35,465 bases of DNA from a virus (taxonomy: Duplodnaviria > Heunggongvirae > Uroviricota > Caudoviricetes): IMG/VR virus record IMGVR_UViG_2534681764_000015, one strand, 5' to 3'. Made by a program: the position numbers and the translations under genes. The notes below the pieces were generated by a model. It worked only from the letters and a program-made list of their open reading frames with translations. It searched no databases and was not told the DNA's origin. Shown piece by piece: positions 12,575 to 34,047 of this stretch (position 1 is the stretch's first letter; each line of letters opens with the position of its first letter).

Positions 12575-12865
12575 ATGTTCAAATTATCAGAATCACAATT
12601 ATCAAGAATGTTTAAGAGTGCTCCTGTATTTTCGGTGGAAGGTGGTAAATCAATTCGTGCTTACCATGAAATTACTACTACCGACGAATCAGGGGTAATG
12701 ACAGAGACAGAATTTCTATTTTGTCGTGAGGGAGACTTAAATCAGGGTGATATTGTCATTGTAGAAAACCAGCGTTTCAAAGTTCAATATATTAAGCGCA
12801 ATGGTGACAATACTTCTGATTGCTTTATTACTCTGGCAGGGGGTACACATGCTCGCTACCGTTAA
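12575..12865 (+). CDS. head-tail joining/completion protein candidate (96 aa)
   Basis: small ORF after capsid with AAGGGGGTAA RBS; assignment by position only. Confidence 0.4.
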   Translation: MFKLSESQLSRMFKSAPVFSVEGGKSIRAYHEITTTDESGVMTETEFLFCREGDLNQGDIVIVENQRFKVQYIKRNGDNTSDCFITLAGGTHARYR

Positions 12866-13271
12866 TAACATGCCTAGACTGAAAATCAAACGCGCCTTGC
12901 AAGATATTATCGAACAAGATCTAGGTCTGGCTTTAAACGTAGAACAAACCCAAACCGGATTTTCGGAATCTGTTGTGTGTTGGATTACTGGCATGAATGA
13001 AACTTATACGCGTGTTCGTGGCGGTAATGCAATGCAAGCTGAATGCGTTATCGAAATGCAGTTATATTCTCAGATTCATGAAACGAAAATTCATGAGGGT
13101 ATTTGCCAGATAATCCAGATTCAGCCGGATAACCCACGTTTTAAAGATTTGGGCTTCTCTATTTCAGATATCACTCCAGTAGCTTCTAATACCGATTATG
13201 ACGATGATTCTAGTGATGGGGGTATCGTTGGGACACTTAGCCTTAAATTTTCTTATCTAGCGCGTTTTTAA
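12849..13271 (+). CDS. head-tail joining/completion protein candidate (about 140 aa)
   Basis: ORF track 12801..13271; ATG at 12849 preferred because of GGGGG upstream; overlaps previous gene by 17 nt. Confidence 0.4.
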   Translation: MLATVNNMPRLKIKRALQDIIEQDLGLALNVEQTQTGFSESVVCWITGMNETYTRVRGGNAMQAECVIEMQLYSQIHETKIHEGICQIIQIQPDNPRFKDLGFSISDITPVASNTDYDDDSSDGGIVGTLSLKFSYLARF

Positions 13272-14187: not shown

Positions 14188-17100
14188 ATGCAATCAATCC
14201 AATTTAAACGAACTAATGTTTCTGGCAAAAAGCCAACGCCGGAACAATTACAGGTCGGTGAGGTAGCAATCAACCTTAAAGACCATGTTATTTTTACCAA
14301 AGACCGAGATCATGAAGTAGTTCAAATCTCTGTTTCTCCTGAAACTCACGCGGCACTAGAATCTAAAGTTGATGCTAACAAACAAGAATTGGATAGCACA
14401 ATTGCAGTAAATGACCGCAATATTCACGCTAAAGTAGATGAAATTAAACAAACTACTGATGCAACCATCGCAGCAAATCACGCAGAAATTAACAATAAAG
14501 TTGATGTAATTAAACGCGAAACCGACGCGACAATCGAGGCCAATAAAAATAAAGCTGCTTCCGATCTTGCTGGTGTTAAAGCTGAATTGTCGGATACCAT
14601 CAACGCTAATAAAAATGCGGCTGCTGTAGCAACTCAGGAACTGGACACCCGCATCAATAAAAAAGTTGATGATATTAAATCCCGTACCGATGCAACCATC
14701 GTAAGCAATCACAAAGCAATCAATGACAAAGTTGATTTGATTAAGGCAGAAACTGACCGCACTATCGCAGCAAATCACGCCTATGCGGAAAATCAGTTAA
14801 CTGACACCTACAATAACCTTACTGGTGTGATTGCAGCCAATAAGCAAGAGGCAGCGGATAACGTCGCAGCATTAACCCGTGATGTTGAAGCCAAAAATAC
14901 AGCAATTCATAGCAAAGTTGACAATAACAAGTCTTACACTGATTCTGAATTGGCACGCTTAGAAAGCCGTATTGATGCAGCCGATGGATCAAGTGATGGT
15001 AAGTACATCAAAAAGCACGTAAACACTTGCACTGATGGCTATTTGCTGTCTAAGACCGCAAACCCTTTTGATGATCCGAGTGCTCTTAATCTTGATTACT
15101 TTGGTGCATTTCGCATGAATGACCTGGCGGGTCATATTGCAATGATCTTGCATGTTCCGCACCCATCCGGCGTTAATCATGCTCGTGGTTTTGAGTTCAC
15201 TTATGGGTCTAATCCGGTTCCTACGGTAAGAACATACGGCTATGATGAATTGGGACATTTGGCATATTCTCACCGCATGTATCATGAAGGTGATAAACCT
15301 ACTCCGGCTGAAATTGGCGCATATTCGAAAGCAGAAATTGACCGACTGTTCCAGAAGACGCTTAATTTTGGTATCGAGGGTGGTTGGTTTAAACTAGGCA
15401 CTTTGACAATGCCACAACAACACGGTCGCACGGCTAAGATCCGTTTGGTTGGTGGTAACGGTTATAACGTCGGGATGAATGGACAAGCCAATATTATCGA
15501 ATTGGTGATCCGATGCGGCAACAATAGCCCGAAAGGTGTTGTATTCAATGCGTATTATACTATTTGGCATCATGAACAACATTTTTGCGCTATTCCAACC
15601 GATGGCGACAATTACGATCTTTACGCTTACTACGGTGCACATACAGGATTTGTTTTAGCAGAATATCAAGTTTCTTCCGGTGGTGTTTCTTTAAACCTGT
15701 TGGATACTCCTGAATATCTGGGTGGTGAAAAACCTGTTGCAGACGAAATTTTTGATGCTCTTAACATTTCATCGTTCAATAACTTTAGCAACCGTGGAAC
15801 GTTAAATTTTGCTGGAAACCATCAAGGCCAATACGACATTGAGCATTTGAACGAACAGCAAACAAATGCCAAGAAAATGTTGCGTCGCTTCCGTAGTTCT
15901 GCTCCTGCCACTATCTGGCATGAGACAGTTGATGATAACGCATATCGTCTTGCTACTGGATACGAAGATACAAATCAGGAATTATTGCTGACAGTAACAT
16001 CCGGGTTACATGTCAAGAAATTAACATTGGATGGTGGTGTTGGTGGAAATTCTGGTATTGATATTCGTCGAGGACCAAACGAAGCAAGCCATTTTAATTT
16101 CATGGATTATCGCACTGGACAAGATGTTCGTAATGGTTGGTTTGGTTTTGGTGATGGAACAACCAAAGATTTTATTTGGTGGAACGACAACGGTCAAAAC
16201 TCTATAAACCTGATTGCAGATGGTGAATTACATATTTCTGGCGGTAAAGGCCAGAAAATTGTAATGAATAGCGAAGTTGCATTATCTGAAAATGCTCGTT
16301 TGGCTGTTAAAGGTGGCAATTATGGTTTGATTTTACGCAATGATGGTTCTAGCTTCCATATTCTTACTACCGATTTAAAAGATTCTTTTGGTAGTTGGAA
16401 TAATCGCAGACCATTCAGCTATGATTTTGCGGACGGTGGATTGTATTTAGGTGGTACTGCAACCGCTCGTTGTTTGCATCTCGGAATTGATGGTAGTACC
16501 CGTCTTGAAGACAACCTTTTCTTTAAAGCTGGTTCTCGTCAATCTATGGACTATATGGAACTCGTCCATTGGGGTGCAAGCAATACAGGTCGAAATAACG
16601 TTTTAAGTCTTCGTGACTCAAAAGGATTTTTCGCAGAATTTGAACGATTGGGTGATAATACCATTAAAAACACCTTCTTCGGGAAACTTAAAGTTAATCG
16701 TGGTTCTGACGCAATCGTCATGAATGCCGAAACGGGTGATTCGTCTATATATTTGCTGGGTACTTGTGCTGATAATAACAACTGGTATATCGGTAAAGGT
16801 GGTGCTGATAATGGATTAGCGTTCTATAGCTATGCTACTAATGCTGCTATCAATATTACAAACGCGGGTGATATCGCGCTAAGTCCAAAAGGTGTCGAAA
16901 TGACTCATGTCAATAACGTTCGATTCTATGTTCATGGTGAACGTTGGACTGCTAGCCAATCTGGAGGTTGGGGCGATCAATGGGGATTAGAAGCGCCGAT
17001 ATTTGTCGATCATGGTTATGTAGGACCAGATAGCTATTATCCAATTATTAAAGGAAGAAGTTTAATCACCAATCAAGGGTATACAACTGCCGTCGATTTT

Positions 17101-17598
17101 GGTATGCGTCGTGTTCCTCAAAATTGGGGGCAAGCTATTATTCGTGTTGGATCTGCGGAGGCATCGCCAGCGGCTGGTCATCCTCAAGCGGTGTTTGAAT
17201 TTCATCATGATGGTACTTTCTATTCTCCTGGTAATGGTAACTTTAACGATGTTTATATTCGTTCCGATGGTCGTCTGAAAATTAATGTTGAAGATTACGA
17301 AGAAAATGCGGTGGATAAGGTAAATAAACTCAAAGTTAAAACCTACGATAAAGTTAAATCTCTTAATGACCGAGAAGTTATAGGTCATGAGATTGGTATT
17401 ATCGCACAGGATTTACAAGAGGTATTACCGGAAGCTGTTAAAACCGCAAAAATTGGTGGTCTTGATAACCCAGAAGAAATTTTAACAATTTCAAACTCCG
17501 CAGTGAACGCGCTTTTAATTAAAGCGGTCCAAGAAATGAGCGAAGAAAATAAACTTCTTCGTGAACGTCTTGCTGCAATTGAAGCTAAATTAGGGTAA
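14188..17598 (+). CDS. long tail fiber with C-terminal intramolecular chaperone (peptidase S74-like) domain (1136 aa)
   Basis: N-terminal MQSIQFKRTNVSGKKPTPEQLQVGEVAINLKD fiber-anchor-like motif; 24-aa coiled-coil repeats; C-terminal SDGRLK...HEIGIIAQDLQEVLPE...LLRERLAAIEAKLG resembles the self-cleaving chaperone of T5 pb1 and endosialidases. Confidence 0.8.
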   Translation: MQSIQFKRTNVSGKKPTPEQLQVGEVAINLKDHVIFTKDRDHEVVQISVSPETHAALESKVDANKQELDSTIAVNDRNIHAKVDEIKQTTDATIAANHAEINNKVDVIKRETDATIEANKNKAASDLAGVKAELSDTINANKNAAAVATQELDTRINKKVDDIKSRTDATIVSNHKAINDKVDLIKAETDRTIAANHAYAENQLTDTYNNLTGVIAANKQEAADNVAALTRDVEAKNTAIHSKVDNNKSYTDSELARLESRIDAADGSSDGKYIKKHVNTCTDGYLLSKTANPFDDPSALNLDYFGAFRMNDLAGHIAMILHVPHPSGVNHARGFEFTYGSNPVPTVRTYGYDELGHLAYSHRMYHEGDKPTPAEIGAYSKAEIDRLFQKTLNFGIEGGWFKLGTLTMPQQHGRTAKIRLVGGNGYNVGMNGQANIIELVIRCGNNSPKGVVFNAYYTIWHHEQHFCAIPTDGDNYDLYAYYGAHTGFVLAEYQVSSGGVSLNLLDTPEYLGGEKPVADEIFDALNISSFNNFSNRGTLNFAGNHQGQYDIEHLNEQQTNAKKMLRRFRSSAPATIWHETVDDNAYRLATGYEDTNQELLLTVTSGLHVKKLTLDGGVGGNSGIDIRRGPNEASHFNFMDYRTGQDVRNGWFGFGDGTTKDFIWWNDNGQNSINLIADGELHISGGKGQKIVMNSEVALSENARLAVKGGNYGLILRNDGSSFHILTTDLKDSFGSWNNRRPFSYDFADGGLYLGGTATARCLHLGIDGSTRLEDNLFFKAGSRQSMDYMELVHWGASNTGRNNVLSLRDSKGFFAEFERLGDNTIKNTFFGKLKVNRGSDAIVMNAETGDSSIYLLGTCADNNNWYIGKGGADNGLAFYSYATNAAINITNAGDIALSPKGVEMTHVNNVRFYVHGERWTASQSGGWGDQWGLEAPIFVDHGYVGPDSYYPIIKGRSLITNQGYTTAVDFGMRRVPQNWGQAIIRVGSAEASPAAGHPQAVFEFHHDGTFYSPGNGNFNDVYIRSDGRLKINVEDYEENAVDKVNKLKVKTYDKVKSLNDREVIGHEIGIIAQDLQEVLPEAVKTAKIGGLDNPEEILTISNSAVNALLIKAVQEMSEENKLLRERLAAIEAKLG
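14356..14800 (+). repeat. in-frame tandem repeats (about 72 nt / 24 aa) inside tail fiber gene
   Basis: at least five KVDxIKxxTDATIxANHxxIN units. Confidence 0.6.
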
Positions 17599-17636
17599 TT
17601 GGAAAGCGGGGAGAAATCTCCGCTAAGGATTCTTAT

Positions 17637-17933
17637 ATGGGATATTGGGTAAGTAGTGAAATTAATACTAAAATCGATGCTTTAAAATGGCATGTATTTG
17701 ATATTCCTAACGGCTATGGTACTGCTCGTGCTGGTGTCGCTGTAATGCGTCATAATGCTGGTGGTGGGTGGTCTGATGCACATATTAACGTAGATGGTTT
17801 GACCGTTGCTCGTCGTCGTGGTGGGACCAATTGGGGATCTACTATAAATTCGTTTGTTCCTGCTGGCTGCACCGTCTCCTTTGGTTTAGGGGGTGAAGGT
17901 GGTGTTGAATATTTTAAATTCATGGAGTTTTAA
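17637..17933 (+). CDS. small Gly-rich protein, paralog A of tandem triplet (98 aa)
   Basis: shares FDIPNGY/W, Gly-rich loop and TVSFxLG...YFKF with the next two ORFs. Confidence 0.6.
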   Translation: MGYWVSSEINTKIDALKWHVFDIPNGYGTARAGVAVMRHNAGGGWSDAHINVDGLTVARRRGGTNWGSTINSFVPAGCTVSFGLGGEGGVEYFKFMEF

Positions 17934-17935
17934 TT

Positions 17936-18241
17936 ATGGCTGGATGGATAAATCAAAGAATGTCAAACGCTATTAGTATTTGGGCTAATGGTGGATATTT
18001 TGATATCCCCAACGGCTGGGTTACTGATTCATGCGGAATTGTTTTTGCTCATATGGAAGCCATTAACGGTGCTGGTGATCTTGATTCTGAATTGGCTGTA
18101 AATGGATTGATTGAATCAGGTCATCATGCTGGTGATGCTGGGAGTTGGGGCGCTAGTTCTTTAGTTGGCGCTGGTGCTACCGTTAGCTTTACATTGGGTA
18201 AAGGTAGTTTGCATTATTTTAAATTCAGGAGAATGCACTAA
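17936..18241 (+). CDS. small Gly-rich protein, paralog B of tandem triplet (101 aa)
   Basis: YFDIPNGW, DSEL, ATVSFTLG, YFKF motifs; start 2 nt after stop of paralog A. Confidence 0.6.
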   Translation: MAGWINQRMSNAISIWANGGYFDIPNGWVTDSCGIVFAHMEAINGAGDLDSELAVNGLIESGHHAGDAGSWGASSLVGAGATVSFTLGKGSLHYFKFRRMH

Positions 18242-18543
18242 TGGCATTTTGGGTAGATGGCGCTTTGGGGAATAGGGCGGGTAAAGCAAATCAAGGATGG
18301 TTTGATATTCCTAACGGTTGGACAGCCGACGCTTTCGGGACTATTTCATTCTGTGCTCATTCTTCCGGTGGTGGCGGTGGTGACTCTGAATTGCTTATTC
18401 ATGGTTTGTGTGTTTCTGGAAGCCATAAGGGTCATGATTGGGGACAGATTCATTCTTGTATTGCACCGCAAGGGGCGGTAATTACCGTTAGCACAAATAG
18501 GGGGATCGCTCATCTTCGTTATAGACGTTTGAGCAACCGCTAA
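18241..18543 (+). CDS. small Gly-rich protein, paralog C of tandem triplet (100 aa)
   Basis: WFDIPNGW, GGGGGDSEL motifs; ATG overlaps stop of paralog B (TAATG). Confidence 0.6.
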   Translation: MAFWVDGALGNRAGKANQGWFDIPNGWTADAFGTISFCAHSSGGGGGDSELLIHGLCVSGSHKGHDWGQIHSCIAPQGAVITVSTNRGIAHLRYRRLSNR

Positions 18544-18597
18544 ATAAATAGAATTACGGGTATGTGCCCTATTGTTTAAAATAGAAGGAAAAGAATA

Positions 18598-29043: not shown

Positions 29044-29391
29044 ATGGCTAAAAATATTTTCACTGAATTTCCTACTTATCCGGTCGATCAGCTTTCCGGT
29101 ATTTTTATTAATGGCATTAGCCCAGAATCTATGACACATGATTTTGAGGCGAAGAGAGTTAAACATAAACAATATAAAGAATGTATCCGCGATCATGAAA
29201 AAGGGACCGTGTTTTGTGTCGCTACATTGGCTAAACGTCCTAAGTATCGTTTTCGTGTCGGACAAGAAGTTGATGTGGTTAATCCTTATAGCTTTAACTG
29301 TCTGGGCGATGCACGCGCGGTGTGTGTAGGCACAACTAATTACTACATTAAAGGACTCAGATTTACCGGGTATATAATGGAATACATCTAA
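29044..29391 (+). CDS. hypothetical protein (115 aa)
   Basis: GGGGGT RBS and downstream terminator; preferred over antisense ORF 29029..29472. Confidence 0.5.
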   Translation: MAKNIFTEFPTYPVDQLSGIFINGISPESMTHDFEAKRVKHKQYKECIRDHEKGTVFCVATLAKRPKYRFRVGQEVDVVNPYSFNCLGDARAVCVGTTNYYIKGLRFTGYIMEYI

Positions 29392-29405
29392 CTCTAATAA
29401 ATACA

Positions 29406-29431
29406 AGCGACCAATTTCGGTCGCTTTTTTA
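29406..29431 (+). terminator. rho-independent terminator
   Basis: hairpin AGCGACC-AATTTC-GGTCGCT followed by TTTTTT. Confidence 0.6.
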
Positions 29432-29443
29432 TTTGGAGGAATC

Positions 29444-30481
29444 ATGGAGATTTTATTTGCTGAATATATCAACTACACCGGATTTACAAGAAAAACGCCT
29501 CTTGACTATGAACCTATTGCCATTAAACGTTGTGATGAGTTGGGGTACATCTATAACGGTTTTGTTGTGCCGTGGAAAGGGCAACATACACCCGTTTCTA
29601 TAACCTGCAAGAAACATAGCACAACGCGAACAATTGCTTTCAAAACTCTTAAAAAACAAGGTGCGTGTCTTGAATGCTATAAAGAATCATTAAAACTTCC
29701 TAAGAAAAAGAATAGAGATAAGGAAGCTGTATTAGATAAAGCAAGCAATGTGCTGGAACGCAAAGATATGGTTTTAGTTGGATTGTTAGAAGATTATAAA
29801 GGATTAGACACAAAAGTTTCTTATAAGTGCAATTGCTGTGATACTGCATACGAAACCATAATCACTAGAATCATAAACGATGATGCTGGGTGTCGTCATT
29901 GTGGGTCAATTAAGAGAGGAATCAATAAGAGAAAACACACAGACGACGAATGGATGGATCTAATTGAGCATGAATGCAGGAACAAACGACTTGAATTAAT
30001 AGAACAACCTAAATCTCCTATATTGTCAACATCAAAAATACACATCAAATGTGAAAAAGGTCATCTTTCTGATTCTTTGGTAGTTTATGGTTTAGTGTAT
30101 GAAAACTTAGGCTGTCCATGTTGTTCTAAAAATGGTTATAACAGAAGTAAGTCGGGAGTTTTCTACGTTCAACAGGTCGGAGATTATATAAAATATGGAA
30201 TAACAAACCATCTAAACCCACAAAAGCGAGTAACTCAACAAGCTAGGGAATCAGGGTTAAAACACAAGTTATTGTGGTATATAACGTTCGGTGACGGAAA
30301 AGTTGCCAATGACCTAGAGTATTCCGTAAAACATAACATAGGAAATCACGCTGCACCAAAAGAACTAATCCCAGACGGATATACAGAAACATGTGACATA
30401 ACCAAAGAAGCGCAGATTAGAAAAATGGCAATGGATTTTTGTAAAAACTCCAACAACTATAAAATTACATATAGGGGGTAA
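29444..30481 (+). CDS. Cys-rich protein with C-terminal GIY-YIG / T5orf172-like motif, paralog 1 (345 aa)
   Basis: three CxxC-type pairs (CKKH...CLEC, CNCC...CRHCG, CEKGH...CPCC) then GVFYVQQVGDYIKYGIT...RV; homologous to 31247..32245. Confidence 0.6.
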   Translation: MEILFAEYINYTGFTRKTPLDYEPIAIKRCDELGYIYNGFVVPWKGQHTPVSITCKKHSTTRTIAFKTLKKQGACLECYKESLKLPKKKNRDKEAVLDKASNVLERKDMVLVGLLEDYKGLDTKVSYKCNCCDTAYETIITRIINDDAGCRHCGSIKRGINKRKHTDDEWMDLIEHECRNKRLELIEQPKSPILSTSKIHIKCEKGHLSDSLVVYGLVYENLGCPCCSKNGYNRSKSGVFYVQQVGDYIKYGITNHLNPQKRVTQQARESGLKHKLLWYITFGDGKVANDLEYSVKHNIGNHAAPKELIPDGYTETCDITKEAQIRKMAMDFCKNSNNYKITYRG

Positions 30482-30482
30482 T

Positions 30483-30836
30483 ATGTTAAGTAAGCATTTT
30501 TCTCGCAAGGAATTTAAATGTAAATGCGGAAAATGTGATTATGATACAATCGACGCTGAATTACTGGTAATTCTTGAGGATGTACGAGAGCACTTCGGGA
30601 AGCCAGTAATTATTAACAGTGGGAACCGTTGCCCGACTCATAACAAGAATGTAGGCGGGGCAGCCAATAGCTATCACGTTCGAGGCCGCGCGGCTGACAT
30701 TGTTATCAAGGGTGTCTCGCCTGATATTGTTCATGCTTATCTTGATGGGAAATATCCTACTCAATACGGCTTAGGAAAATATAAAACCTTTACGCATATT
30801 GATTCCAGATCAAAAAAATCACGGTGGAATGGATAA
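30483..30836 (+). CDS. endolysin, peptidase M15 (L-alanyl-D-glutamate peptidase / VanY-like) family (117 aa)
   Basis: zinc-site motifs SYHVRGRAADI and FTHIDSR, small size like T5-type endolysins. Confidence 0.75.
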   Translation: MLSKHFSRKEFKCKCGKCDYDTIDAELLVILEDVREHFGKPVIINSGNRCPTHNKNVGGAANSYHVRGRAADIVIKGVSPDIVHAYLDGKYPTQYGLGKYKTFTHIDSRSKKSRWNG

Positions 30837-30840
30837 AACA

Positions 30841-30867
30841 AAAGCGCCTCTGGTGGGCGCTTTTTTG
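30841..30867 (+). terminator. rho-independent terminator
   Basis: hairpin AAGCGCC...GGCGCTT followed by TTTTTTG immediately after endolysin stop. Confidence 0.65.
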
Positions 30868-30981
30868 TTAGAATATGCTGGCGACGTTAGCTATATTTCT
30901 GACCATTTTTTCATTATAGACAAATATACCGCAGATGATAAAGTGGTATTCGACGAAGTTGATCCGTCTCTGGTTGAAGCA

Positions 30982-31200
30982 ATGAAAGAACCTGAGATCG
31001 TCATTGAAGAAACAAAAGAAGAATCTCCAGCAGTTGAACCAGTGGTCGAAGAAGTTAAGTCAGATGTTGAAGAAGCACCGGAAGTTAAAGTAGAATCTCC
31101 GGTAGCCAACATTTTCTCGGACGAAGCAGAGCATCGTTCTCCTGCACATGACACTGATTCATTTTGCGATCTTACTGGTTTCCAAAACTACAATAATTAA
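30982..31200 (+). CDS. acidic hypothetical protein (72 aa), doubtful
   Basis: ORF track 30799..31200 spans the terminator hairpin; first ATG after it is 30982; no clear RBS. Confidence 0.2.
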   Translation: MKEPEIVIEETKEESPAVEPVVEEVKSDVEEAPEVKVESPVANIFSDEAEHRSPAHDTDSFCDLTGFQNYNN

Positions 31201-31246
31201 TTCTTATAAATAGTAGTGAATATTATTTTATTGAGGATTCACTACT

Positions 31247-32245
31247 ATGAATACTACTTTAGCAAAGGATATCGAATTTACCGCAAAAAGCAAACGTGCG
31301 ACCCCTCCGGTCGAATATGAAACCAGAATCATTAAAGTTTGTCAAGTGCATGGATGGTTATACAGTGGTTTTGTGCTTCCTGTAAAGAAACCATTCCAGA
31401 ACACCAAAGTTTGCATAGAAGTTAACGGAAAGGTTAAAACGCCATGTATTAGTCATGTTCTAACTGGTCAGTTTACTGGCAAAGATAGAGTATCACCGCC
31501 TAAGAAGGAGTTTAGATTTACCGAAGAAGAACACTTAGAAAACGCTCGCAAGTTCTACAAGCCGATAGGGTGGGATGTGTTAGGTCTGGCTGAACCTTAT
31601 CAGGGTGTTGACACTAAACTAATTCTTCGTTGTAAGTGCCACGGAAAGATTCACAAGAAAGGTGATTTACACAATAACCGCAGACAAGGCGGGTTAACAT
31701 GCCCTTTGGTTAGGGGGGTACTTAAATCAATTCAGAATGGTAGAAAACAGGTTATCAGAAACAAGTTTGCACAGCGCCCTATGCACTTTTATCTAATTCG
31801 TGTTGGCGAGAAGTTTTTCAAATATGGAATTACCACTCGCAAAGATCCGATGCAACGGGTAAGAGAACACCAGAAGCACACCAGCGAGAAAATCACCTTT
31901 GAATGCTCACATTTGTTTAACATTGGATGGAAAGCTGGTGATTTAGAAATGGGGATTAAAAAGAATATTCAGGGCAAGAAAATCCCACGTAAGGTAATGA
32001 ATAGCGGATTCACAGAAACGCTACCGATTAGCAAGCTGAAAGATGTTAAATCATTCATCAATGAATACATCCACACCAACCCATCTAAGCCAATGTATTT
32101 TGATGATACCAACGCAATCAATCTGAACAACTACATTAGTGATGAAGACATAGAACGAGATTTATCGCAGTGGATGAATGCACCGTTAGCTGATTTAACA
32201 CCGGAAGACTTAGAACTCGATTTAAGCCCTTTAGAGGCTCTTTAA
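31247..32245 (+). CDS. GIY-YIG / T5orf172-like motif protein, paralog 2, Cys-depleted (332 aa)
   Basis: aligns with 29444..30481 at EYETRIIKVC...GFVLP, YQGVDTK, FYLIRVGEKFFKYGIT...QRV, GFTET. Confidence 0.6.
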   Translation: MNTTLAKDIEFTAKSKRATPPVEYETRIIKVCQVHGWLYSGFVLPVKKPFQNTKVCIEVNGKVKTPCISHVLTGQFTGKDRVSPPKKEFRFTEEEHLENARKFYKPIGWDVLGLAEPYQGVDTKLILRCKCHGKIHKKGDLHNNRRQGGLTCPLVRGVLKSIQNGRKQVIRNKFAQRPMHFYLIRVGEKFFKYGITTRKDPMQRVREHQKHTSEKITFECSHLFNIGWKAGDLEMGIKKNIQGKKIPRKVMNSGFTETLPISKLKDVKSFINEYIHTNPSKPMYFDDTNAINLNNYISDEDIERDLSQWMNAPLADLTPEDLELDLSPLEAL

Positions 32246-32257
32246 TACAATTAAATT

Positions 32258-32290
32258 AAAAAGGGGTACGGATGTACCCCTTAACTGTTT
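32258..32290. terminator. bidirectional terminator between convergent genes
   Basis: hairpin AGGGGTAC-GGAT-GTACCCCT flanked by A-run upstream and T-rich downstream. Confidence 0.6.
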
Positions 32291-32318: not shown

Positions 32319-33998
32319 TTAAATTCCAAATTCCTGTAATGGACCTGGTATTTCCTCTTCTGGTTTCCAGTTCTTATCTGTCAGCATGTCTAAACATGGA
32401 TGCAAAACAAGCCCGTTACTCTCCAGAATCTGCCTATCATTGATAGTTTTCAAATCAATGAATATCCGGCCTTTCCTCGTTCCTCTTGAATTTTCTATTA
32501 CAACTCTCTGGGTCTTTCCATCGATGTATTCCAGCACAAACAAGTTTTTATTTCTGTCAATCCTGCTACACCCGATCCGCTTTAGAGCTTGCTTAATCTT
32601 AAACCGGACCTTTAGTCGTTCCTCGTTATAAACATCTTCTAAATCAAATTCTGCGAGCTTCTCCCAGCCTTGAGAGTCCACAGAATACATTTCCTCTTCT
32701 GCCATCTTGATCTGATTGTAGAGTGTTTCACGCTCGCTATTGAGGGTAGTAATCTGATCGGCTAGCTCCTTCGTTGCTCCTGTCATAGCAGAAAGGGCAA
32801 TCAGGTTATCAATCTTGCGTGATATTTCATCAACCTGTACTTTCAACGCCGGAACCGGATTAGCCTTGTCCTCAGCAATCCAGATTTTATCAGCCAGCAA
32901 TTGCAATACAGCTTTCTCTAATTGATCACCTCGAAAACTCCAGTTTGGATGCTCGCAATCAAGTCTACGTGAACGGGTCGCATCACATGTATAACGATAC
33001 TGGTCAGAACGTTTGTTCGTTCCCTTCACTTTAACCATAGCGCAACCGCAATGATCACATTTCAATAGGCCAATACCACTAAGCAGGGGGATCGGTTTAA
33101 CTTCTTCCTTGTCTCCAAAGTTCCATGCTCTAGCACCAATATTTTTCTTAAGGTGATAGAACGTAGCATCATCAATAACACGAGGGTAATAATCCTTTAA
33201 CTCATAGTTAACACCATCTACAGAGACTTCCTTGATACCAATCAAAGCGCGGGTATGGAACAACCTTTCAACCATTGCCCGTGACCATTTTGAATGCTTC
33301 TTATTACTAACCGCTGGTGGCGGTGTATATGTCTCGTTAAGGTGATCCAGTATTTCGGCGGTTGAACGTCCATTCTTCCGTAATTCCACAATCTCCTGAA
33401 CAACAGGGAAGTATGTAGGATGAGGCAACACATAACCGGAAGTGGTATCCGTCCACCACATATTCTTTCCAACTTCCTCGATTGCCACTGCCGGATTCTG
33501 GGGATTTTCTTGATGGGCTTTAATCTTAATCAGTGCGCTTGAGTTAGTACGATTGCGCTTAGTCTGGCTTTCCTCATTACCACGGATGAATAAAAGGATG
33601 GAGAACATCAGGTCCATCGGGTTAGCGGTAACAGTATCCAGCGAGTAGATCTTGTTATCCATGCCAGTAACAATGGTTATCCCCCTACGGATGATTGAAA
33701 GGAATAACTCCTGCGCACTGACAATATCGGCACGGGATAAGCGGTCCAAGTTTTCAATGAATAGCCAGCTACCAACAGGAACGGATCTACCAATTGCATC
33801 AAGGAAACGAGATAGCGCCCCTGTTTTGGAGTTAGCACCCTTAAACGCAGATACACCCAGATCCTGATAATCATTTACCAGTTCAAGGTCATACTTTGCC
33901 GCAACCTCTCTCGCCATCCTGATTTGTCGTTCATAACTCGAACCATCATTCTGACGCATAGACGAGAAGCGAATATACGAATACAGTTTAGTTTTCAT
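32319..33998 (-). CDS. large serine recombinase (integrase-type) (about 559 aa)
   Basis: N-terminal LYSYIRFSSMRQ catalytic-Ser motif of the resolvase/invertase domain, Cys cluster CDHCGC...C...C (zinc ribbon), C-terminal coiled coil; ORF track extends to TTG at 34013. Confidence 0.85.
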   Translation of the reverse strand: MKTKLYSYIRFSSMRQNDGSSYERQIRMAREVAAKYDLELVNDYQDLGVSAFKGANSKTGALSRFLDAIGRSVPVGSWLFIENLDRLSRADIVSAQELFLSIIRRGITIVTGMDNKIYSLDTVTANPMDLMFSILLFIRGNEESQTKRNRTNSSALIKIKAHQENPQNPAVAIEEVGKNMWWTDTTSGYVLPHPTYFPVVQEIVELRKNGRSTAEILDHLNETYTPPPAVSNKKHSKWSRAMVERLFHTRALIGIKEVSVDGVNYELKDYYPRVIDDATFYHLKKNIGARAWNFGDKEEVKPIPLLSGIGLLKCDHCGCAMVKVKGTNKRSDQYRYTCDATRSRRLDCEHPNWSFRGDQLEKAVLQLLADKIWIAEDKANPVPALKVQVDEISRKIDNLIALSAMTGATKELADQITTLNSERETLYNQIKMAEEEMYSVDSQGWEKLAEFDLEDVYNEERLKVRFKIKQALKRIGCSRIDRNKNLFVLEYIDGKTQRVVIENSRGTRKGRIFIDLKTINDRQILESNGLVLHPCLDMLTDKNWKPEEEIPGPLQEFGI

Positions 33999-34010
33999 AC
34001 CATTTCCAAA

Positions 34011-34047
34011 CAAAAACGCCCCTACCGCGTATTATAACGATAGGGGC
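34011..34047 (-). terminator. rho-independent terminator candidate for gene 34062..34481
   Basis: minus-strand hairpin GCCCCTA...TAGGGGC followed by GTTTTTG. Confidence 0.45.

Follow-up and report, generated by a model that had tools for sequence, protein, structure and literature searches.

Two genes resembling GIY-YIG nucleases lie on either side of the endolysin gene in a 35,465-nt stretch of tailed-phage DNA (IMG/VR record IMGVR_UViG_2534681764_000015; hereafter, the window), raising the question of what these genes, ORF A and ORF B, are and how they came to be there. Both exist as open reading frames where a preliminary description, made from the sequence alone, had placed them (Table 1), and we conclude that they are probably free-standing homing-endonuclease-type genes of the T5orf172 branch, situated in the late/cargo region of a lambda-like Escherichia coli prophage. 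Their fold, family, and genomic behavior are established by the comparisons given below, which make them new members of an already described family and not a new category.

Table 1. Features of the endolysin–integrase region, numbered from the first nucleotide of the window
Feature	Position	Strand	Basis or remarks
Upstream 115-aa late gene, function unassigned	29044..29391	+	ORF list; stop codon marks where the ORF A insertion site starts on the left
Putative 58-nt co-conversion tract, 3′ end of the 115-aa gene	29334..29391	+	Different allele, inherited with ORF A
Cassette leader with terminator-like hairpin (29405–29426 plus T-run)	29392..29443	+	Terminator scan
ORF A, 345 aa, T5orf172-family homing-endonuclease-type gene	29444..30481	+	PHROG 681 “endonuclease,” 8.8e-43
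ORF A zinc-finger DNA-binding repeats (three), CapR/DUF4379-type	29498..30127	+	Residues 19–82, 93–155, and 167–228
ORF A GIY-YIG-fold (T5orf172/MUG113-type) nuclease domain	30155..30478	+	Residues 238–345
M15_3 peptidase endolysin	30483..30836	+	Pfam, 8.8e-28
ORF X, chimeric remnant ORF	30829..31200	+	Native start, minus-strand nuclease scar, in-frame inh fragment
Deletion scar of a third CapR+T5orf172 gene	30840..30918	-	Alignment, terminator scan
Internal fragment of inh (prohead-protease inhibitor), T4-like Krischvirus origin	30926..31183	+	97–99% identity
ORF B, 332 aa, T5orf172-family paralogue with decayed zinc fingers and acidic C-terminal tail	31247..32245	+	PHROG 681, 3.8e-20
ORF B GIY-YIG-type nuclease domain, all core residues retained	31778..32101	+	Residues ~178–285; aligns to ORF A 240–343
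ORF B acidic C-terminal extension (...DEDIERDL...PEDLELDLSPLEAL)	32135..32242	+	Kept in distant alleles
Bidirectional terminator hairpin between ORF B and the convergent integrase gene	32261..32282	.	Terminator scan, both strands
Large serine recombinase (prophage integrase)	32319..34013	-	Pfam Resolvase 9.6e-15, Recombinase 4.1e-9, Zn_ribbon_recom 2.4e-10

The two proteins had been thought to align along their length. Their homology is far beyond chance but is confined to two blocks, comprising residues 1 to 131 of both proteins (32% identity; E = 1e-11) and residues 240 to 343 of ORF A against 181 to 284 of ORF B (30% identity; E = 4e-12); residues ~132 to 239 of ORF A have no counterpart in ORF B. 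The motif reported as common to both, FY..VG..KYGIT...R, is real and belongs to a core that is invariant across homologues (in ORF A numbering, Y241, K250-Y-G-I-T254, R262, E292, and G312-x-T-E-T316). The Cys pairs, previously taken as zinc ribbons, are zinc-finger DNA-binding repeats: ORF A has three Cys/His repeats, each with its full set of ligands (C55/H58/C75/C78; C129/C131-132/C150/C153; C203/H207/C224/C227), and its full-length structure model contains three modules of a helix plus three strands. The loss of ligands noted earlier in ORF B is also genuine, with those of repeat 1 gone and repeat 2 retaining CxCH...CP only. Among Pfam models, CapR matches residues 23 to 63 of ORF A (E = 1.9e-4; 22.0 bits versus a threshold of 24.2) and, below threshold, ORF B (E = 0.014), and DUF4379 and Zn_ribbon_8 weakly match ORF A residues 122 to 155; CapR/DUF723 domains are precomputed on ORF A relatives of 83 to 92% identity. 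The N-terminal zinc-finger repeats of T5orf172 homing endonuclease genes (HEGs) are thereby recognizable in ORF A and, in part, in ORF B.

A family census, a transitive BLASTP link, and a fold match place both proteins in the GIY-YIG superfamily, as had been proposed, and within it in the T5orf172/MUG113 branch. Direct matches of the C termini fall below the Pfam gathering thresholds: ORF A scores 14.9 bits against MUG113 (threshold, 22.3), and ORF B scores 15.4 bits against MUG113 (22.3; E = 0.028) and 13.0 bits against T5orf172 (20; E = 0.15). Sub-threshold as they are, these matches point to the right models (PF10544/PF13455) and the right region. Word-indexed searches returned 7 and then 15 relatives, and an exhaustive representative search was needed to gauge the size of the family; of 56 homologues, 17 match T5orf172 (best, 6e-11), 11 match MUG113 (best, 1.6e-10), and 53 carry DUF4379. 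A 391-aa protein of genome L010, which is matched by ORF B at 4e-20 (BLASTP), scores 27.9 bits against MUG113, and it is through such shared-domain homologues that sequence comparison assigns ORF A and ORF B transitively to T5orf172/MUG113. In a domain-only model, the C-terminal domain matches the GIY-YIG domains of SLX1/HIGLE (Foldseek), and its predicted structure is the GIY-YIG α/β fold, with a hairpin bearing both Tyr motifs, the Arg helix, a third strand, and flanking helices. No meaningful Foldseek match was obtained with the full-length, beads-on-a-string model of ORF A, searching PDB chains directly with its sequence returned noise alone (lamin, Fab), and an NCBIfam search yielded nothing useful. 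Y241, Y251-G252, R262, and E315 are, like E292, invariant or nearly so in 9 to 56 homologues and present in both ORF A and ORF B; judged from order and secondary structure rather than from superposition, the former are presumably the catalytic positions, namely the Tyr of strand 1, the Tyr-Gly of strand 2, the Arg of helix 1, and the metal-binding Glu.

The position of the nuclease core in the C-terminal half, which the preliminary description regarded as an unusual domain order, is the normal architecture of published T5orf172 HEGs: these place CapR/DUF723/DUF4379 zinc fingers at the N terminus and the T5orf172 domain at the C terminus (Netter 2021, PMC8096241; Barth 2023, PMC10448857). The HEGs of ICP1 and of T5-like, Aeromonas, and Vibrio phages share with ORF A and ORF B this architecture, a free-standing intergenic position, and a location at exchange boundaries, the last being a published pattern for the family (PMC10448857), and they too have recombined within the DNA-binding repeats. 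ORF A and ORF B differ from the published HEGs in being carried by a temperate E. coli prophage (PMC10448857 contains neither “prophage” nor “temperate”) and in falling under the Pfam nuclease-domain thresholds; ORF B differs further in lacking most zinc ligands and in possessing an acidic tail. Direct relatives of ORF A by sequence are the “RB49p240/ORF238c-like” endonuclease genes of Krischvirus (RB49-like) phages (26 to 30% identity over ~90% of the length), and T5p137 of phage T5, a gene located between tail genes and encoding two strong CapR domains (2.5e-24), is a direct relative of ORF B (27% identity). Unlike the genes in the window, these relatives belong to virulent phages, often with two to three copies per genome, and, given the low identities, their target specificities must differ. 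An equation of T5p137 with the eponymous “T5orf172” was dropped: this gene is annotated as RB49-like only and matches CapR/DUF4379 but not T5orf172 (Pfam, E ≤ 10).

The Seg-type and I-TevI-type endonucleases of T4 share the superfamily and the free-standing lifestyle, but the N-terminal GIY-YIG domain matching PF01541 and the C-terminal DNA-binding region of that type were not found in ORF A or ORF B. With SLX1/HIGLE, structure-specific GIY-YIG (URI) nucleases, the two proteins have the fold alone in common; those enzymes serve DNA repair in eukaryotes, carry a RING/PHD partner domain, and depend on Slx4, and their context and biology differ.

Neither gene is universal at this position. Synteny among 55 related E. 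coli prophages includes all four combinations of ORF A and ORF B, a polymorphism in keeping with the free-standing, homing-endonuclease-type behavior suggested at the outset. ORF A itself is a free-standing intergenic gene, present or absent among otherwise near-identical genomes: it is a precise ~1.08-kb (~1,082-nt) insertion found in 3 of 5,426 E. coli genomes, and 52 of the 55 prophages, being ORF A negative, have a clean empty site in which the 115-aa gene ends 9 to 10 nt before the endolysin ATG. A plasmid collection contained no match. The cassette is self-contained (hairpin, ribosome-binding site, and gene) and is placed between the stop codon of the 115-aa gene and the endolysin ribosome-binding site. 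Its leader is conserved in L012 and L016 and folds at −19.6 kcal/mol (z = −4.7), the extended stem of the hairpin covering the GGAG of the ORF A Shine-Dalgarno sequence. Downstream, the M15 peptidase assignment of the endolysin was borne out, whereas the overlap of ORF A with its start was not: a single base separates the stop codon (30479 to 30481) from the ATG at 30483 (TAA-T-ATG), and the native endolysin Shine-Dalgarno sequence (GGGGG) is preserved within the last codons of ORF A, as seen in the junction alignment.

The upstream junction has a different structure. Over its first 290 nt, the 115-aa gene is 99.7% identical to that of the ORF A-negative relative L002; over its last 58 nt, identity is 62% to L002 and 94.8% to the ORF A-positive L016. 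This 58-nt tract does not vary among the three ORF A-positive genomes and differs at 22 of its positions from every aligned ORF A-negative relative; the recombination breakpoints lie at 29333/29334 and ~30472. Strictly linked to ORF A and derived from a diverged ORF A-positive donor, the tract bears the signature of co-conversion, and the alignments indicate that ORF A arrived in an otherwise empty-site backbone together with this 58-nt donor flank. The matching sequence of the empty site is a candidate recognition/cleavage region. By its substitution pattern, ORF A is under purifying selection (dN/dS of 0.09 to 0.14; omega of ~0.1), which is strong for the nuclease core.

SegE, SegG, and I-TevI cleave the gene-less allele and co-convert its flanks, and target-site polymorphism protects the carrier. 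For the genes considered here, N-terminal CapR/DUF4379-type repeats, of which three are intact in ORF A and two are decayed in ORF B, would read the DNA, and both proteins would act through the predicted C-terminal GIY-YIG-fold nuclease domain with its Tyr...Tyr-Gly...Arg...Glu core. We infer that, when ORF A-positive and ORF A-negative phages meet within one cell, the ORF A protein would cut the empty allele at or close to the 3′ end of the 115-aa gene, that repair from the ORF A-positive genome would copy in the cassette along with a short stretch of flank, and that the substitutions in this flank (22/58) would shield the carrier from self-cleavage. A direct demonstration of homing was not found for this family in the papers examined on T5orf172 HEGs.

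ORF B has another history. The two genes had been viewed as a pair bracketing the endolysin, but ORF B is not adjacent to that gene, with ~410 nt of remnant DNA lying between, and the two are independent elements, ORF A having been gained by conversion and ORF B being lost by deletion. Of the 55 prophage-bearing genomes, 18 have ORF B at full length; most related prophages lack it or have it deleted. An empty homing site was ruled out as the explanation of the ORF B-negative state, which results from microhomology deletion instead, and the acidic tail survives in the deletion derivatives as the end of a 65-aa fusion ORF; flanking co-conversion was not seen at ORF B. Nor is ORF B simply degenerate, as first supposed: its catalytic core is intact, and alleles of only 55 to 59% identity (L011 and L012) conserve the core, the CxCH..CP site, and the acidic tail (dN/dS versus distant alleles is not computable, synonymous sites being saturated). 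ORF B, a member of the T5orf172 family like ORF A, is the older resident, having conserved its core, reduced its zinc sites, and gained an acidic tail. The protein could remain a nuclease whose targeting is relaxed or altered; alternatively, the prophage may have co-opted it.

If co-opted, ORF B especially, and perhaps other T5orf172 genes of the cargo, would cut superinfecting phages (e.g., Krischvirus), and the outcome would be defense or marker exclusion that serves the lysogen/prophage and not selfish spread. Odn of ICP1 and SNIPE/PD-lambda-1 each fuse a C-terminal nuclease of the same superfamily to a targeting module, and both illustrate that conflict between mobile elements can draw on nucleases of this kind. 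The targeting modules themselves, RepA_N in Odn and a transmembrane segment plus DUF4041 in SNIPE, are not present in ORF A or ORF B (for DUF4041, by Pfam); in SNIPE, the transmembrane segment is at the N terminus and the GIY-YIG nuclease at the C terminus, together with DUF4041 (bioRxiv 10.1101/2025.11.03.685801). PADLOC gave no significant match for ORF A and, for ORF B, a match to PD-Lambda-1 limited to 22 residues at the core motif (E = 0.005). On the PADLOC result and the missing transmembrane and DUF4041 domains, membership in the SNIPE/PD-lambda-1 defense system was rejected, and, with ORF B lacking from most related prophages, we consider it unlikely both that these nucleases act against superinfecting phages and that their maintenance reflects a service to the lysogen.

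The right border of the variable cargo interval is formed by the serine recombinase gene. Within the interval, ORF X, whose length in relatives ranges from 65 to 148 aa, is probably not a functional gene. The scar that it incorporates consists of a terminator (30864 to 30840) and the last ~17 codons (30868 to 30918) of a third nuclease gene, with AGACA microhomology at the junction; the gene is intact on the minus strand in L003, L005, and L011, and its 193-aa product exceeds the Pfam thresholds for both CapR (8.2e-6) and T5orf172 (21.1 bits). The inh fragment is 97 to 99% identical to 59 Krischvirus records. In phage SSG23, uvsW adjoins inh, and sequences of Krischvirus origin, uvsW (81% identity) and inh (97 to 99%), flank T5orf172 nuclease genes in related prophages. 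Import of the nuclease genes along with Krischvirus DNA is unsupported, since the search for relatives of the 193-aa nuclease beside uvsW/inh in T4-like phages produced only distant Klebsiella phage matches and none of the Krischvirus relatives of ORF A and ORF B is adjacent to inh.

Such mosaicism could mean that the nuclease-like genes are passive cargo, moved by general homologous recombination only, and that the ORF A breakpoint is coincidental. The window is mosaic in many places, including tail-fiber segments shared with Krischvirus; ORF A is itself a recombinant of L016-like and L012-like parts; and sequence gives no proof of a double-strand break. Yet the imported tract corresponds almost exactly to the cassette plus 58 nt and ends at the endolysin ribosome-binding site, all three carriers of ORF A have the same tract, the nuclease core is under strong purifying selection, and HEGs at exchange boundaries have been published for the family (PMC10448857), such that we find purely passive movement improbable. 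A wider reading, to which we likewise attach little probability, holds that the endolysin–integrase interval is a site of exchange between the temperate prophage and virulent Krischvirus, with a nuclease cutting near uvsW–inh and with ORF B co-opted. The uvsW and inh flanks could then serve as homology arms, and a prophage nuclease could cut infecting Krischvirus near uvsW–inh, leading either to exclusion (defense) or to copying into Krischvirus; if true, this would be homing across phage lifestyles. It is very improbable that the zinc-finger repeats make these proteins sequence-specific repressors or activators with a catalytically dead C-terminal domain, as might be suggested by the sub-threshold CapR matches in both proteins and by the example of CapR itself, which in the Vibrio PLE satellite is a DNA-binding module domesticated from the T5orf172 family (PMC8096241). 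CapR is without a nuclease domain, whereas ORF A and ORF B keep the full domain and all of its invariant core residues (Y, YG, R, E), and ORF B, the candidate for domestication, lost zinc ligands rather than the nuclease core.

As homing-endonuclease-type genes, ORF A and ORF B extend the T5orf172 family from virulent phages to a temperate prophage, and ORF A offers a clean natural example, in E. coli as the most tractable of hosts, of a homing endonuclease gene of the T5orf172 type shortly after its invasion. Sequenced strains provide the empty and filled sites, the donor-type flank, and each of the four ORF A/ORF B states, so that a test of homing would be straightforward in them. The locus is also a record of recent DNA exchange linking a lambda-like prophage with T4-like Krischvirus phages. 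A single 3-kb interval holds stages in the life cycle of selfish nucleases: invasion, selected maintenance, IS disruption, zinc-finger decay, and deletion scars.

ORF A and ORF B, both T5orf172-family genes in the late region of a lambda-like prophage, are additional members of a known branch of GIY-YIG homing-endonuclease-type genes. The coordinates first given for them agree with the ORF list, and the original observation is confirmed apart from small corrections. The two proteins are homologous, as the preliminary description held, although not along their whole length: they align in two blocks (A1-131 with B1-131, E = 1e-11, 32% identity; A240-343 with B181-284, E = 4e-12, 30% identity), and ORF A residues ~132-239 have no equivalent in ORF B. 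All three Cys/His-rich repeats of ORF A have complete ligand sets; ORF B has, as noted earlier, lost most of its ligands (all of those in repeat 1, and in repeat 2 all but CxCH...CP). The reported overlap of ORF A with the endolysin start does not exist, as a single base separates stop and start codons (TAA-T-ATG).

Coordinates of features in the window and in related prophage loci (L-numbered)
Feature	Position	Strand	Evidence or remark
ORF A, 345 aa	29444-30481	+	ORF list
M15_3 peptidase endolysin	30483-30836	+	Pfam E = 8.8e-28
Scar of 193-aa CapR+T5orf172 gene	30840-30918	-	only last ~17 codons and terminator left
inh (prohead-protease inhibitor) internal fragment, in-frame	30926-31183		97-99% identity to 59 Krischvirus records
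ORF B, 332 aa	31247-32245	+	ORF list
ORF B acidic C-terminal tail, residues 297-332 (…PEDLELDLSPLEAL)	32135-32242	+	kept in alleles only 55-59% identical
uvsW-like helicase, full or truncated	L010 127-1617; L016 3375-4868; L012-L015 5423-6094	-	endolysin-integrase interval
185-aa T5orf172-type protein	L010 1617-2174	-	43% identity to 193-aa minus-strand nuclease
391-aa T5orf172-type protein	L010 2340-3515	+	endolysin-integrase interval

Pfam matches of the two proteins are all below threshold: each matches the CapR homology domain, and their C-terminal domains match MUG113/T5orf172 at E 0.03-0.15. Both match PHROG 681, “endonuclease” (8.8e-43 for ORF A, 3.8e-20 for ORF B), and the ORF A repeats match PHROG 559, “HNH endonuclease” (4e-12), and thus form a DNA-binding module common to nucleases of another class. 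The GIY-YIG/T5orf172 identity originally proposed is nonetheless firm, since three independent lines converge on it: a family census, a transitive link, and structure. An exhaustive profile search places the family at 47,986 cluster representatives (E ≤ 1e-3); among a sample of 56 representatives that have the C-terminal domain in common with ORF A and ORF B, Pfam detects T5orf172 in 17 (best 6e-11) and MUG113 in 11, along with the zinc-finger domains DUF4379 (53/56), CapR (28/56), and DUF723 (20/56). ORF B also matches (4e-20) the 391-aa protein that occupies its position in the related locus L010 and that scores above threshold in Pfam for both CapR and MUG113. The isolated domain (ORF A residues 228-345) gives a confident AlphaFold model (pLDDT 90.7, pTM 0.85), and Slx1/HIGLE structures take 10 of the 11 top places in its Foldseek search (probability up to 0.98), with E-values of 0.04-0.3 that are not significant taken alone. 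The invariant residues (Y241, K250-Y-G-I-T254, R262, E292, and G312-x-T-E-T316 in ORF A numbering) are all retained in both proteins, and their modeled placement on strand 1, strand 2, helix 1, and the later Glu position is consistent with the expected GIY...YIG...R...E core. In the full-length ORF A model, three predicted zinc-finger modules, each a helix plus three strands, precede the C-terminal nuclease domain.

Exactly this architecture has been described for the “T5orf172 HEGs” (Netter et al. 2021, PMC8096241; Barth et al. 2023, PMC10448857). Their C-terminal T5orf172 domain follows DNA-binding zinc fingers of the CapR/DUF723/DUF4379 types at the N-terminus, often present as repeats, and the genes lie at the borders of genetic exchange. 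For one T5orf172 nuclease, Odn, Glu-dependent activity has been shown (PMC10448857). The domain order initially regarded as unusual is therefore the norm of this branch, and is unusual only by the standard of Seg/I-TevI enzymes. Membership in the latter group was ruled out, as the nuclease domains of ORF A and ORF B are C-terminal and Pfam yields no PF01541 match. In a metagenomic protein of 508 aa (P0006), a zinc-finger and T5orf172-type module of this kind is naturally fused to domains of ATP-dependent DNA ligase (PF01068, PF14743).

Judged by sequence comparison, ORF A displays the footprint that would be expected from homing with flanking co-conversion. The 4-kb region around ORF A and ORF B has a match in 55 of 5426 complete E. 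coli genomes (96-98% identity), with no single genome covering more than 72% of it, and ORF A DNA occurs in only three of the 5426 (99.8-99.9% identity), in one of which, E. coli HCP5S3_I4 (L017 3053-5426), it is interrupted by IS2. Synteny shows ORF A to be polymorphic: most relatives have a clean empty site, the endolysin lying 9-10 nt from the upstream 115-aa gene. The insertion of ORF A is precise: it spans ~1082 nt from the stop codon of the 115-aa gene to the endolysin ribosome-binding site (the right-hand breakpoint of the import), carries its own hairpin and GGAGG, and ends in codons that read into native GGGGGTAATATG. The initial 290 nt of the 115-aa gene are 99.7% identical to ORF A-negative L002, whereas the final 58 nt (29334-29391) share 94.8% identity with the diverged ORF A-positive L016 versus 62% with L002; this 58-nt tract has 22 differences from every ORF A-negative relative examined and none among the three ORF A-positive genomes. 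ORF A itself is mosaic, being L016-like across the zinc-finger repeats (29600-30099, 98-100% identity) and L012-like at the end of the nuclease domain (30300-30499, 98%). Alleles with 83% and 92% amino-acid identity to ORF A fill the same site in other family members, and dN/dS is 0.09-0.14 for ORF A and similar for the endolysin. A predicted leader hairpin (-19.6 kcal/mol, z = -4.7) overlaps part of the ORF A Shine-Dalgarno sequence and may hold expression low, as is the case for T4 homing-endonuclease genes. The event would have started with a double-strand break made by the ORF A protein.

ORF B, which the preliminary description considered possibly degenerate, is full length in 18 of the 55 matching genomes (98.5-99.6% identity), and other genomes contain far more diverged alleles (55-59% amino-acid identity). 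Even at that distance, the alleles retain an acidic tail (EDLELDLSPLEA) that ORF A lacks, together with the CxCH...CP remnant and the core of the nuclease domain; ORF B is therefore under constraint rather than a pseudogene. The ORF B-negative state was rejected as an empty site: window position 30995 is fused to 32200 at a microhomology, marking a deletion, so the polymorphism of ORF B records loss, and the relatives compared give no sign of recent gain. The 65-aa “hypothetical protein” of ORF B-negative prophages (L004 2948-3145; L007 4438-4635) is a fusion ORF, produced by the ~1.2-kb deletion, that joins the start of ORF X (a chimeric remnant) and part of inh to the acidic tail. On a metagenomic contig (L015 6166-7161), a B-like gene is broken into 118-aa and 162-aa ORFs.

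The cargo of the endolysin-integrase interval varies between relatives. Three of them (L003, L005, and L011) have an intact minus-strand gene for a 193-aa CapR+T5orf172 protein that is above both Pfam thresholds. In the window this gene is reduced to a scar that abuts the inh fragment, with AGACA as the microhomology at the junction; L003 and L005 retain ~105 nt more of inh. With the 185-aa and 391-aa genes of L010 counted, no fewer than four separate lineages of the T5orf172-type family occur in this hotspot. Other relatives contain a gene for a uvsW-like helicase (PF21241 UvsW_N, E = 2e-34) that is ~81% identical in nucleotide sequence to Krischvirus uvsW and is oriented as uvsW is beside inh in Krischvirus; this gene and the inh fragment together suggest that a uvsW-inh segment was captured from a T4-like phage. 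Among the relatives searched, there was no evidence for a Krischvirus origin of the nuclease genes. Elsewhere in the window, a stretch at 15051-18559, comprising part of a 1136-aa ORF plus downstream sequence, matches the Krischvirus long-tail-fibre distal subunit region, with up to 96.8% identity across 15784-17904, and again points to exchange with T4-like phages. ARAGORN calls a 91-nt tRNA-Glu(ttc) at 13036-13126 (-), whose length and location within ORF 12801-13271 suggest a false positive.

Defence, or another co-option by the prophage, is plausible, chiefly for ORF B: the location fits and Odn and SNIPE/PD-lambda-1 offer precedents, but PADLOC gives no support, and the defining SNIPE domains are absent from both proteins. 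Passive carriage, with the genes moved through ordinary recombination, is a less likely reading: the imported tract coincides closely with the cassette, and the nuclease core is under purifying selection, neither of which it fits well. A nuclease-dead regulator resembling CapR is unlikely because all core residues are retained. The core interpretation of these genes as homing-endonuclease-type nucleases is correct and the finding real; its added value lies in an invasion footprint in E. coli prophages that is very clean and open to experiment, and in evidence for DNA exchange between prophage and Krischvirus.
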